Shown here: positions 17,033 to 22,019 of the stretch, piece after piece
Layout: the number at the start of each line of letters is the position of its first letter
Position numbering within the stretch: the stretch's first letter is position 1
NCBI GenBank assembly: GCA_965261735.1
Contig: OZ253470.1
Coordinates: 2,112,001-2,176,000 of the forward strand
DNA: 64,000 nucleotides
Reading direction: 5' to 3'
DNA from: Alphaproteobacteria bacterium
GTDB lineage: Bacteria > Pseudomonadota > Alphaproteobacteria > SHVV01
Notes under the pieces: model-generated
Database searches by the model: none
Told to the model about the DNA's origin: nothing
Seen by the model: only the letters and a program-made list of their open reading frames with translations
Translations under genes and position numbers: made by a program

Positions 17033-17036
<4 letters not shown>

Positions 17037-17959
17037 AGCCGGCCGCGCTGTTCACGAGCGACTACTACCGCGCCGAGGATTGGCTGCCGGCGCTCGCCCG
17101 GCGGCTACCCGAGCTCGAGGTTCGCGTCTGGCCCGATATCGGCGCCGCGGACGAGATCGACATCGCGCTCGTCCACAATCCGCCGCCGGGCTTCTTCGCC
17201 AGCCTACCGGGCTTGCGCGCCATCATCGCCATCACGGCGGGGGTCGAGAACCTGCTCGCCGACCCCGAGCTGCCCGAGGTACCCATGGCCCGCGCCGTGG
17301 ACGAGCGCTTCTCGCTCGACATGGCCCAGTACGTGGTGTTGCACGCGCTGCGCCACGCCCGCCACATGCCCGAGGTCGTGGCCCACCAGCGCGCCCGGCG
17401 CTGGCGCCCGATGCTGCCCCGGCGCGAGGCCACCGCCGGGGTCATGGGCCTCGGCGCGATGGGCGCCACAGCGGCGCGGGCCCTTGCGGCCGTCGGTCTC
17501 GGCGTCGCCGGGTGGAGCCGCACCGCCAAGGACATCGCCGGGATCGACTGCTATTCCGGCGCCCAAGGGCTGGGGCCGTTCCTCGCCGCGACCGATATTC
17601 TCGTCTGCCTGCTGCCGCTGACCCCGGCCACGCGCGACCTGATCGACGCTGAGATGCTCGGCCGCCTGCGACCCGGCGCCTGTTTCATCAACGCCGGGCG
17701 CGGCCACCAGGTGGTCGATGCCGACCTGCTGGCGGCGCTCGACTCGGGCCAGCTCGCGCACGCCACCCTCGATGTCTTCCGCGAGGAGCCGCTGCCCGCC
17801 GATAGCCCCTACTGGGACCACCCGGGCGTGACCCTCACCTGCCACAGCGCGTCCGACCCCAACCCCGACTCGATGGCGGTCACGATCGCCGAGAACATCC
17901 GCCGCGCCCGCGCCGGCCAACCGCTGCTCGACCCCATCGACCGCGCGCGCGGGTATTGA
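17033..17959 (+). CDS. ghrA: Glyoxylate/hydroxypyruvate reductase A-like 2-hydroxyacid dehydrogenase
   Basis: GVMGLGAMG, LLPLTPAT, INAGRG, ATLDVFREEPLP, C-terminal DRARGY. Confidence 0.85.
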
Positions 17960-17970
17960 GGGGGCCTGCT

Positions 17971-18222
17971 CCGCGGCCGCAAGGCCAGCCCTGAGGACAC
18001 AAGGCGTGAGGACATCAGGCATGGGGACGCGAGGCCGCCCCATGACGCCCGAGGCCGTCCATGAGGACATGAGATATGAGGAGGCAAGCCGCCCCATGAG
18101 GAGGCGAGACCAGCCTTGAGGACGCAGGCAGGCGATGAGGGCACAGGGCCGTAGGGCACGAGGACATGAGGCATTAGAACGGCGAGACCGGCCATAAGGA
18201 CGCAAGGCGTGACGACTTCGCG
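17971..18222 (+). repeat. Degenerate direct-repeat array, ~13 units of consensus ATGAGGACRYRAGGC, some followed by a 5-nt CNNCC linker
   Basis: Units start at 17991, 18006, 18021, 18041, 18061, 18076, 18096, 18116, 18135, 18158, 18173, 18194 (weaker at 17971 and 18209). Confidence 0.85.
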
Positions 18223-18276
18223 TTGACAGGTGGCTTCGGCGCGGAGATACTAATAGGAGTTATACTCCTTTTAGTA
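18223..18276 (+). promoter_or_regulatory. Sigma70-like promoter with overlapping 13-3-13 inverted repeat (operator-like)
   Basis: TTGACA (18223-28), 17 nt, GATACT (18246-51); palindrome TACTAATAGGAGT-TAT-ACTCCTTTTAGTA at 18248-18276 with one mismatch. Confidence 0.7.
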
Positions 18277-18288
18277 GGTGTGAGACTC

Positions 18289-18687
18289 GTGCCAACCATC
18301 GAGCTGACCGAGGAAGTTTGGAAGGAGATCGCTCGACGGGGGCAATTCGGAGAGACCGAAGACGTGGTCTTGCGCCGTCTCTTCGGTCTCGAACAGATCC
18401 GCCACCCAAACCCCGCCGCGCCGGCCAATCGAAGCTCGCAGGGAACACCTCGCAGAAGATTCGCGACGGACCGGCAGTCGGTGTATTCGCGCGGTGATCG
18501 GTTGATCGTGTCCTACGAGAGTGGCGCACGCCAACAGTGGTCCCTACCGGCCCAGGACGACAAGCTCTCTATTCGCCGCTTGATCGACGAAGTGACGGTG
18601 TTCGGCCATGCGAACGGCGCCACTCACGGGCAGGTCTTGGCGCTCCGCAAATGGCTCACCGAACGCGGCTGGCACCTGACCAAGTAG
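18289..18687 (+). CDS. Hypothetical DNA-binding protein with SeqA-N-like ribbon-helix-helix N-terminus
   Basis: GTG start. MPTIELTEEVWKEIARRGQFGETEDVVLRRLFGL follows the pattern of the SeqA N-terminus (MKTIEVDDELYSYIA...GESASDILRRML). The C-terminal domain is not recognised. Confidence 0.7.
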   Translation: MPTIELTEEVWKEIARRGQFGETEDVVLRRLFGLEQIRHPNPAAPANRSSQGTPRRRFATDRQSVYSRGDRLIVSYESGARQQWSLPAQDDKLSIRRLIDEVTVFGHANGATHGQVLALRKWLTERGWHLTK

Positions 18688-18702: not shown

Positions 18703-19056
18703 TCAACCCTCGATCTGTTCGCCGGCCTTGGTGATTAGCCAGGCGAAGTCGCTCAGGTACACCGAGCCCTTGATCGTCGGCAGGACGAGCACGCTGCGCC
18801 GGTCGGCGCCGTCGCGCGACCGCCGTACGAAACCGAGCCGGCCCAGCGAATCGAGGGCCCGCGTGATCGCCGGCTTGGAGACGTTGAGGGTGGCGGCCAG
18901 GCTACCCGCCGTGTGCGGCTCCGGCGTCAGGTACACGGTCAGCATGAGCGCCATCTGCCGGGCCGAGAGATCGGGGCCGTCGCGGCGCACGTTTTGGACC
19001 AGCGCCTCGCGCCACAAATTGAGCGCCTGCCGCATGGTGTAGCTTGCTTCCGTCAT
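18703..19056 (-). CDS. MarR-family transcriptional regulator
   Basis: DLSARQMALMLTVYL, NVSKPAITRALDSL, DRRSVLV; sits directly downstream of the M17 aminopeptidase gene. Confidence 0.9.
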   Translation of the reverse strand: MTEASYTMRQALNLWREALVQNVRRDGPDLSARQMALMLTVYLTPEPHTAGSLAATLNVSKPAITRALDSLGRLGFVRRSRDGADRRSVLVLPTIKGSVYLSDFAWLITKAGEQIEG

Positions 19057-19138: not shown

Positions 19139-20462
19139 TCAGCCCGGATAACGCTCGGCGATCAAGGCGTAGAGTGCGCGCAAGCCTTGCGCCTCGCCGC
19201 CGAGGGGGCGGCCGGGCCGAGGTTTATGGCTCCAGGCATAGAGGTCGAGATGGGCCCAGCTCGCGGCACCGGCGACGAAACGCTGCAGGAACAGCGCCGC
19301 GGTGATGGCGCCCGCGAAGGGCGAGTCGCCGGCATTGTCGAGGTCGGCCACCCGGCTGTCGAGGACAGTCGCGGTAGGGCGCCCATAGGGGCAACCGCCA
19401 CAGCGGGTCGGCCTCGGCCTCGGCGTGGCGGGCGAGCGCGCCGGCGAGCGCATCGTCGGGCGTGAACAGGGCGGGCAGGTCGGGGCCGAGGGCGCTCCGC
19501 GCGGCGCCGGTGAGGGTTGCGCAATCGATCACCAGATCGGGCGCCTCCTCGCCCGCGAGCGCCAGCACATCGCCTGGCCGGATCGCATTGCCGGCGACGC
19601 TGTTCTCGACCGCCGGGATCAGCACCCGCAGCCGCACCGGCAGGCGCGCCGCCATGATCATTTGGGCGAGCCCGAGGACCGTGGCGGCGCCGCCCATGTC
19701 CTTCTTCATGAGCCGCATGGTGCGCGCCGGCTTAAGGTCGAGGCCGCCCGAATCGAAGCACACGCCCTTGCCGACGAGGGTCACCTTTGGTGCCGACGCC
19801 TCGCCCCAAGCAAGATCAATGAGGCGCGGCTCCCGCGTGCTCGCTCGCCCCACCGCATGGATGGCCGGCAGGTTTCGCGCCAATAGGGCGTCGCCGGCGA
19901 TGGTTTCGCAGGTGGCGCCGTGCGCCTGGGCGAGATCGGCGGCCGCGGCGGCGAGCTCGGCCGGTCCCATGTCGGCGGCCGGCGTGTTGATGAGATCGCG
20001 CACGAGGAAGACGGCGCGCACGCAGCGCACGACGTGATCGGCATCGGCCGCCGCCGGGGTCAGCAGGGTCGCGGCGTTCTCGTTCGCGCCCGCCTTATAG
20101 CGGGCGAAGCGATAGCCGCCGAGGGCGAAGCCGAGCGCGGCGTGGGTCGCTTCGCCGGCTTCAAGGGCGGCGTCGATGCGGTAGGCGGCGGCCGGCAGCG
20201 CACCCGGCAACACCGCATAGGCCCACGGGTCGATCTCGTCCGCAACCCCGAGGGCCACACCGGCAAGAACCCCGCCCTCGCCCGGCACCAGCAGCACATG
20301 GCCCGCCTTGGCGGCAAAACCCGCACGCTCGACCCACGCCGCAACGGCGGCGGGCTGCGAGCGCCGCCACGCATCGAGCCCGGCGGGCGTGAGCGGCCAA
20401 ATCGGGATGGCGCCCGAATCGGGCGCGGCGGGTGCGACGGGGGCGGCGGTGTCGTCGGACAT
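19139..20462 (-). pseudogene. M17 leucyl aminopeptidase family pseudogene
   Basis: LVGKGVCFDSGGLDLK and MKKDMGGAA are present. The NTDAEGRL catalytic segment is missing (RPGDVL joined to ALAGEE) and there is a +1 frameshift near 19365. Confidence 0.88.
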
Positions 20463-20686
20463 GGCACGGACCTGATATGTAGGCGGGGATAGGAGCGGAC
20501 TCTGCATCAACAGTCTCTCACCAGCCCCGTGCCGGCAACCCCGCGAGGCTCGGTATTGGTGCCGCCGAGGTGCGGCACCTAATCTCGGAGCGTCCGCCCC
20601 GCCGCGCGGGCACGTTGGCCCGCTCGCGCCTCGGCGCTCGAGGAGATCGGACGGCAACTCGCCGCGATTGCCGAGCCGGGCCGCAA

Positions 20687-21030
20687 TTAGCAGAGATCGA
20701 GGGGCTCGATCGCACGCAATACGGCGTCCGGTTGCGTGCGCGTCATCGCCATCAGGTCGTGCTTGTCGGGCGACACCTCAGACGGCGCGCCGCTATGGCC
20801 GACGACCACATCGTCCCAACCGTCGCCGTTGAAATCGCCGCGCGCGACGATCTCCAGGTAGCGCCCGCCACGCTCGGTTAGCACGACCAGCAATTCCGCG
20901 CTCGGCACTTCGACCAGCGGCGTGTCCTCGAAACGGCGCCATGGGACGCCCTTGTCGTTGGCGGCGCGGGCCCGACAGTACTGGTCATCGGAGGGGTTGG
21001 GCATCAGGACCGCCGGCAGGTAATCTGCAC
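20687..21030 (-). pseudogene. 3' remnant of a protein with an FG-GAP-like motif, fused to the transposase remnant
   Basis: GDFNGDGWDDVVVG motif; no independent start; in frame with the ISKra4 C-terminus. Confidence 0.5.
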
Positions 21031-21800
21031 GTGGACTGATGTTGTCGTTGGCCGGTGTGTCGGTTGCGCTGATCAGGGCCTTCCATGCGCGCTCGAAGCG
21101 GCCGGATTTGATCAGGGCGCGGAAGGTCAGAACAGCCTGTCCGCCGACGATCCGCCAGCGCATGCCGGAGCGCTTCATGCGCTGTGTCACCAGGGATCTT
21201 GTTGGCAGCCTCGACCACGCCTGAGCCGATGGCGATGCCCTCTTCCTTCAGGGCGTGGTAGCGCATGCGATGGCGATGCTTGCGGAAGAAGGCGAGTTCC
21301 CGCTCGGTCTCGGCCCGGTCCGGCGCAGCGGCGGCATCGCGAAGGTGGCGCAGCGCCCGGATCACCTTGGCGACGCCACGGGGATCGTGACGGAGGATCT
21401 CGCGGTACTTCTCGAACCAGCCGGGCGCCACGGCATGGTCGGACGCGGTTTGCAGATGTTCGCAAGCATGCCAGAAGTCGATCACCTCGGTTTCGGGCGA
21501 CAGGGTCTCCAGGAAGGTCCAGTTGTCGGCGGCGCCATCGGCGATAGCGACGATCCCGATCTCGGGGCGTGCTCGCCTGATGTGTGCGACTTCGCTTGCA
21601 AGCTGCGCCTTCAGCGTGAGCTTGCCGCTCTCCGGCATGGGGCCGAGATAGAGGGTCTTCAGGCGCTTGCCCTCGGCGTCGTGGAAGGAGACCGTGCCGC
21701 AGGCGGCCTCGCGCCAGGAGGCCTTGGCGCGACCGTCCTCGCCGGGTCTCAGCGGCACCATGACGCCGTCGAGGGAGACCGAGGCGTCGGCGGCGAGCGG
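21031..21800 (-). mobile_element. ISKra4-family transposase remnant (5'-truncated, frameshifted)
   Basis: VSLDGVMVP, AIADGAADNW, IDFWHACEHL, IGSGVVEAANK, then +1 shift to LVTQRMKRSGMRW. No terminal repeats recognised. Confidence 0.82.
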
Positions 21801-21891
21801 CTCCAGCCTGTCGCGGCGCAGGACTTGGCCGACCAGGAAGATCGTTACAAGGGCGAGCACGATGACGCTTTCCATGGTTTCCTCCCATGTC

Positions 21892-22019
21892 TGAATGATG
21901 TTCACTCATACCAGAGAATTATACATCGTTTAAAACTATTTTTGAACAATGTCCATTTCCTTGGAAAAGGCGGATTCTCGCCCTGTTTATCCGTCGGTAA
22001 ACAGTGTTCAAATAGTTTT
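21892..22019. promoter_or_regulatory. Four 13-bp palindromic operator-like sites (consensus TGAACNNTGTTCA) in AT-rich divergent promoter region
   Basis: TGAATGATGTTCA 21892, TATACATCGTTTA 21920, TGAACAATGTCCA 21943, TAAACAGTGTTCA 21998; directly upstream of the TetR gene. Confidence 0.7.

Follow-up and report, generated by a model that had tools for sequence, protein, structure and literature searches.

The window analysed here, a stretch of 64,000 nt, carries between two host genes a unit of about 720 bp, for which the initial annotation had described some 13 repeats, a promoter, a palindrome and a 132-aa ORF; all of these parts proved real by scans and shuffles. The left flank is a ghrA-like D-2-hydroxyacid dehydrogenase gene (17033..17959, + strand; Pfam 2-Hacid_dh_C, E 3e-43), and the right flank a convergent marR-family gene (18703..19056, - strand; Pfam MarR, E 2e-11). 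The unit is stand-alone, as had been proposed, in that it is an insertion between ghrA and marR and no ATPase, integrase or toxin gene was found between these two genes.

Array, promoter and gene between ghrA and marR

The array (17971..18222, + strand) is non-coding, purine-rich on the + strand, and consists of 13 degenerate direct repeats of (CA)TGAGGAC-RYRAGGC, which start at positions 17992, 18007, 18022, 18043, 18062, 18077, 18097, 18117, 18136, 18159, 18174, 18195 and 18210, with a spacing of 15 or 19-23 nt. The word CATGAGG, at no more than one mismatch and without overlaps, is present in 14 copies (mean 5.2, maximum 9 in 20,000 dinucleotide shuffles). Mean pairwise identity among the units is 0.77 for TGAGGAC and 0.33 for the three bases that come after it. 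A scan of the 5.03-Mb genome with the unit profile gave 13 matches at the array and three or fewer at any other place; no second cluster, unlinked to the gene, was found in these 5.03 Mb.

The array abuts the -35 box of a sigma-70-type promoter match, TTGACA-17-GATACT (18223..18251, + strand), which is the sole consensus match within 1.7 kb (0.1 expected) and was correctly recognised beforehand. The same applies to the 29-bp palindrome over the -10 box (18248..18276), whose arms (18248-18260 and 18264-18276) are complementary at 12 of 13 positions, a score reached by none of 2,000 shuffles; its core GGAGT-TAT-ACTCC (18256-18268) is also the conserved site of the protein family, AGT-N3-ACT, and is predicted to be an operator. 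Three further genomic sites that fit the operator pattern seem, by eye, to belong to coding sequence, and no regulon was found. A Shine-Dalgarno-like AGGTG (18276..18280, + strand) is located 8 nt 5' of the GTG start of the ORF (18289-18687; 132 aa). Longer gene calls (P0002 and P0190), which read back through the promoter and the array, were rejected as the true start because nearly all aligned homologues start at the equivalent position. A metatranscriptome contig spans 18327-18712 of the window, hence most of the ORF, with two differences, and is a weak hint of transcription of the small gene that may also stem from DNA carry-over. The contigs of the RNA libraries leave the array uncovered, to which no weight attaches.

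Three other public runs each yielded the stretch from the array to the gene on one contig, which rules out an assembly artefact. The strain differences near 18149, 18181 and 18220 comprise an 11-nt insertion (two of the three runs), a 1-nt deletion (all three runs) and one substitution; by eye, the insertion adds a 14th unit, and at the deletion it may be the window that has one base too many.

The genes ghrA and marR are convergent neighbours in all five genomes of the same family that were compared for synteny, as the initial annotation had suggested to examine; their gap measures 41-50 nt by aligned ends in four relatives and about 200 nt in the fifth (G002), and contains neither a gene nor repeats in any of the five. 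The unit of array, promoter and gene is therefore an insertion. In the genome with the wider gap, the marR orthologue (G002:C4, L002) was matched in two frames. The GC3 of the 132-aa ORF is 0.75, compared to 0.89-0.93 in the neighbouring genes, and horizontal acquisition of the gene is likely. A search of 60 relatives did not find the protein, and the family profile found no member in seven genomes of the order and in 400 other genomes of the class; in two other phyla, one of 250 and none of 300 genomes beyond the seed genomes were positive, the single case being a stand-alone gene without fusion. The gene is a rare, sporadic accessory gene that is scattered across phyla.

One run (X3, record 15) contains a 514-nt contig of depth 2 from a related organism, in which the end of ghrA is fused to the 3'-terminal ~60 nt of the small gene (window 17961-18652); by eye, the 36 linking letters retain residues 113-119, with codons changed synonymously and the frame shifted. 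This contig is probably a deletion remnant, in which the greater part of the gene was apparently lost along with array and promoter in one deletion, and it suggests that the gene has long been present here.

To the right of marR, a gene for an M17 aminopeptidase (19139-20657, - strand) looks broken, with its C-terminal part in another frame, either as a pseudogene or through an assembly error; the conserved TDAEGR-type motif is absent from all its three frames. At higher coordinates, 2 kb off the unit, lies a split transposase remnant (20687-21905, - strand), presumably ISKra4/ISLre2-like by its appearance, for which no Pfam match was obtained.

A SeqA-like N-terminus on an uncharacterised C-terminal domain

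A word-index protein search returned only the gene's own cluster, and the family was recovered by a full HMMER search; it comprises 177 representatives (E<=0.001), most of them 120-150 aa long and matched end to end. Profile and model divide the protein into a SeqA-N-like domain of the ribbon-helix-helix (RHH) type, predicted to serve for dimerisation (codons 1-34; 18289..18390, + strand), a linker that is variable in the alignment and of low confidence in the model, with a dip in pLDDT (codons 35-53; 18391..18447, + strand), and an uncharacterised basic beta3-alpha2 domain, which is a predicted DNA reader (codons 54-132 and stop; 18448..18687, + strand). In the open-access literature, as judged on titles and the starts of abstracts, neither the family nor its C-terminal domain seems to have been described.

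The likeness to SeqA that the initial annotation had seen in the N-terminus is weak in the single protein (Pfam SeqA_N, E 0.027, under the cut-off) and clear in the family, whose 74-row profile matches the N-terminal domain of SeqA (1XRX) with E 7e-7; 51 of the 74 members match SeqA_N at E<=0.1, and the match of the profile to 3FMT is confined to positions 1-47. Weak matches of members to VAPB_antitox (10 of 74) and to an Arc-like PHROG (2 of 74) were also observed. The AlphaFold2 monomer (pLDDT 89) shows an extended segment followed by helices 8-17 and 24-31, the loose linker, and the beta3-alpha2 domain at 54-132. The N-terminal domain of this monomer, which the initial annotation had expected to model as RHH, fits 1XRX with an rmsd of 1.3 (34 columns, E 0.3); the residues of the SeqA filament are not kept. 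A two-copy complex prediction (score 0.15, mark 0.42) weighs neither way on a dimer; the protein likely dimerises via its SeqA-like N-terminus.

SeqA of E. coli (1XRX, 3FMT; PMC2691817) has the same layout, in which a homologous oligomerisation domain of 33-34 N-terminal residues is joined through a flexible linker to a distinct C-terminal domain; PMC2691817 gives A25R, T18E and I21R as substitutions that disrupt the filaments, with A25R SeqA remaining a dimer without filaments. The filament residues Thr18, Ile21 and Ala25 of SeqA align with Gly18, a one-residue gap and Glu24 in the protein of the window; relative to SeqA, the filament loop is short of one residue, and Ala25 is replaced by Glu. 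Ala is found at this position in only 11 of the 74 members. With Glu at the position of Ala25, a SeqA-type filament, and with it a polymer coating the array, would be unlikely as judged by sequence. The C-terminal domains of SeqA and of the family, the latter about 79 aa of beta3-alpha2, are unrelated. SeqA reads hemimethylated GATC, whereas the site conserved in the family, on its own promoters, is AGT-N3-ACT. A Dam-family methylase (PF02086) was not found in the 98% complete genome, with E. coli as a positive control.

The protein of the window forms one of the two longest branches (1.66) in a quick tree of 95 rows, and several residues that are nearly invariant in the family are altered in it; distant homologues may therefore not represent it. 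No relatives were found in viral contigs with three queries, and none in phage records except for a weak tail-spike match (E 0.2). Three loci (L054, L056 and L057) encode the same SeqA-N-like N-terminus on other unannotated C-terminal domains, and the upstream palindrome of L057 is a different one.

The C-terminal domain is basic (14 K/R, 8 D/E), with Gly114-Gln115 nearly invariant and a conserved Lys121 on the last helix, and its earlier description as an unrecognised domain was confirmed by the lack of a Pfam family for 51 C-domain sequences. Its profile found no match in SeqA, from whose C-terminal domain it also differs in topology. Structure searches yielded no clear match, the top hits being a set of ribosomal-protein and designed folds (Z 6.2 and 5.9, the latter within background), Foldseek gave no match to PDB or BFVD at E<=0.001, and the rows from the Atlas were below the bar for naming; this lack of a structural match is evidence for neither a new nor a different fold.

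Fusions of the C-terminal domain to restriction-nuclease, TIR and HEPN-like proteins also occur: among 30 hits that are longer or of atypical make-up, ten contain HSDR_N (five), Mrr_cat with HARE-HTH, NucS_C, TIR_2, Hypoth_Ymh or HARE-HTH, so that HARE-HTH is present in two of the 30, and eight of 15 hits that were tested match PADLOC defence models. In one protein of 836 aa (P0141) the domain is inserted in a long sequence that is phage head-morphogenesis-like (MuF-like) by eye and has no Pfam match. Fusion patterns of this kind were used by Iyer et al. (PMC4738411) to predict RAMA and HARE-HTH as readers of modified DNA, with restriction-type nucleases and SeqA as partners; a reader role of the C-terminal domain would follow by analogy. 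Its 51 sequences match neither in Pfam, and its best structural Z of 5.9 is within background. Given the domains that the C-terminal domain shares its proteins with, the stand-alone protein probably comes from defence and toxin-antitoxin neighbourhoods, as an accessory in DNA sensing or in regulation.

Predicted operator, neighbours and array at homologous loci

The homologous loci comprised 43 from genomes, the best 80 of 156 from metagenomes, one from a plasmid, and the window, hence 125 in total; the start was placed in 122 of these, and 101 were retained that are non-redundant and have sufficient DNA ahead of the start. The loci of the closest hits to the protein of the window, e.g. P0003 (51%), are outside this sample.

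The initial annotation had proposed to see whether array and palindrome co-occur upstream of homologues; the promoter and the palindrome are kept there, and the array is absent. Of the 101 loci, 67 have TTGAC no more than 90 nt ahead of the start, mostly at a distance of 57-60 nt, and 49 have a palindrome at p<=0.05. An exact AGT-N3-ACT within 75 nt upstream was found in 34 loci, some of them related and thus not independent, compared to a mean of 1.9 and a maximum of 6 in shuffles; these sites cluster 15-16 and 30-35 nt past TTGAC, i.e. on or just beyond the -10 box. On a profile of the family site that was built without the window, the palindrome of the window scores 14.8 bits and the best position of the array -3.3 bits. 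Two thirds of the loci lack the exact site, mostly those of the Arg5 majority, in which variant sites of the TGATAGT type are frequent by eye; these variants could be readable by the ribbon.

The exact site is found with each of the residues at position 5 of the ribbon (R, 11 of 62; K, 9 of 16; T, 5 of 6; S, 2 of 5; E, 4 of 4; Q, 2 of 2; L, 1 of 1) and in none of the three loci that encode the same N-terminus with another C-terminal domain. SeqA oligomerises through its N-domain and binds DNA through its C-domain (PMC2691817). The occurrence of the site with all seven residues, and its absence when the C-domain differs, suggest that the site is read by the C-domain, much as SeqA reads DNA, with the reservation that the kin share both domains, that only 11 of the 62 Arg5 members have the exact word, and that the control with a swapped C-domain comprises three loci.

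Toxin-antitoxin genes are located within two genes in six of 42 genome loci and in the one plasmid locus. No constant downstream gene family was found in the 42 loci, and the gene of the window is followed by the convergent marR, hence by no cotranscribed toxin. Four loci (L029, L030, L039 and L134) have no promoter palindrome, and their gene lies directly 3' of a UvrD-like helicase gene (identified in L029), in a defence-operon-like arrangement.

Arc, CopG and the RelB, VapB and FitA antitoxins are autorepressors of the RHH type. The gene of the window is likewise small, with an RHH-type N-terminus and a conserved palindrome over its own -10 region; in contrast to these systems and to type II antitoxins in general, its family has no conserved toxin partner, has a folded and conserved C-terminal domain, and keeps its site whatever the residue at position 5 of the ribbon. 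The palindrome over the promoters of the family has the layout of an autorepressor operator, and binding to it is predicted from this layout. We consider it most probable that the unit is an imported gene for an autoregulated dimeric protein, made of SeqA-N and a new domain and provided with its own operator, which stands beside a separate, lineage-private array that the family normally lacks. The 132-aa protein would dimerise through its SeqA-like N-terminal domain, its C-terminal domain rather than the ribbon would read the AGT-N3-ACT palindrome, as the C-terminal domain of SeqA reads DNA, and the protein bound to the palindrome would repress its own sigma-70 promoter.

No array was found at any of the 85 homologous loci whose upstream DNA spans 350 nt or more (best repeat score 8, for an A/T-rich word, compared to 14 in the window) or within about 1.5 kb of 100 loci (best score 9, again compared to 14), and none of 124 loci has two or more matches to the array unit of the window within 260 nt. 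The array is missing from every related gene examined and is therefore probably not the normal partner of the protein. The idea of a centromere-like system of protein and array, put forward in the initial annotation, is thus not supported as a conserved system, since the homologous loci are without the array and the array is without the family site.

Origin and possible use of the array

The array itself is most likely private to this lineage and of uncertain origin, which we regard as the better-founded view together with a self-repressing dimeric protein. The unit-pair pattern occurs in one of 400 other genomes of the class, as a single occurrence, and comparison of the array DNA with 20 relatives, 72,556 plasmid records and 50,697 phage records yielded short matches at chance level and nothing long.

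A binding role of the array in this lineage is unlikely, though it has several points in its favour. The diverged protein would bind the 13 CATGAGGAC sites, probably via its altered C-terminal domain, and coat or loop the array, as a means of self-titration, promoter tuning or locus organisation. The array and the gene belong to one insertion, the array reaches up to the -35 box, and uniformity within the unit is highest in its core half, which sites bound by a protein would be expected to show; the AGGA of this core recurs in the operator half-site AGGAGT of the window, where most family sites have GWAGT. The long branch of the protein, the maintenance of the array with small indels in three other runs, and the depth-2 contig of the related organism, where array and promoter were apparently lost jointly with the larger part of the gene, also fit such a role. 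Against it are the absence of the array from homologous loci, the low score of the array on the family site, and the Glu that predicts no SeqA-type filament. ParR, omega and ParG are plasmid centromere-binding RHH proteins with parC/parS arrays, and the window resembles their loci in having an RHH-type gene downstream of a repeat array with its own promoter. Type Ib/II partition systems differ in that no ParA/ParM ATPase was found in the window or the 42 loci, where the 130 neighbour ORFs examined, out of 160 called, contained no ParA/ParM, Rep or integrase family, and in that the array is neither conserved in the family nor a match to its site.

The array could, alternatively, have arisen by local slippage expansion of a 7-8-nt word, CATGAGG(A), and be a functionless, decaying minisatellite, which is a possible though by no means favoured reading. 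The second half of the unit resembles the first half less one base, higher-order copies are present (24 nt at 79-88% identity, 12 nt identical, period 55), and the 11-nt and 1-nt indels between strains are located inside the array, but the conservation within the unit is uneven. Slippage would explain the origin of the array, and is compatible both with the preferred reading of a separate, private array and with a later use of it.

An improbable source is the non-coding region of a phage or mobile element, with the array as an idle relic of short repeats preceding a strong early promoter, or of a field of attachment arms, that was brought in with the gene. The left-end short repeats of T7 (V01146), known as SRL, have the form C[CA]TAAAGAC and precede promoter A1 (TTGACT-17-GATACT) on its own strand; likewise, the array of the window, with degenerate C[CA]TRAGRAC-like units, is on the strand leading to TTGAC-17-GATACT. 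Six T7 repeats reach at least 3 bits on the core profile of the window, compared to 0.75 in shuffles (0 of 500), but T7 was picked after the fact, the repeat copies are not independent, the T7 stretch scores on the reverse strand too, and the T7 repeats stop more than 100 nt before A1. Furthermore, the T7 unit is CCTAAAG, phage genes and a terminal repeat are absent here, and the likeness may be due to chance. As regards attachment arms, the unit has neither an integrase nor a mirror arm. A viral contig (L284) carries a purine-rich non-coding array that has seven strong core matches, compared to 1.25 in shuffles, and ends just before TTGACA; however, it was likewise picked after the fact, was found by using the window's own pattern and is one of 32 such loci. 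This array extends over about 450 nt (about 870-1330, - strand) and consists of degenerate GGCGATA, ATAAGGC and ATGAGG words. The best-scoring of 123 viral loci with the array pattern are coding or simple repeats by eye. The lack of a long DNA match in the plasmid and phage records, and of the protein family in the viral contigs searched, also speaks against a phage relic.

Least probable by far is that the array is transcribed into a CsrB/RsmZ-like RNA, whose AGGA loops would soak up an RNA-binding protein. By eye, GGA is present in nine units, and one forms a perfect CAUG-AGGA-CAUG hairpin; however, no CsrA family match was obtained in the 98% complete genome, the + strand shows no folding beyond that of shuffles (z 0.38), there is no Rfam match at the gathering score, and neither a promoter upstream of the array nor a terminator match was found.

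In a wider and rather doubtful view, the family would be a second, Dam-independent lineage on the SeqA design, its C-terminal domain a new reader of DNA, possibly of modified DNA, that also serves restriction-type and TIR defence proteins, and the private array of 13 sites would be coated for titration or chromosome organisation. At the level of the preferred reading, the previously uncharacterised family now has a predicted site, AGT-N3-ACT, and the N-terminal domain of SeqA would be reused with a different reader outside of Dam-positive bacteria. The C-terminal domain, without a Pfam family or clear structural match and recurrent on restriction nucleases and defence proteins, is a candidate for a new DNA-sensing module.
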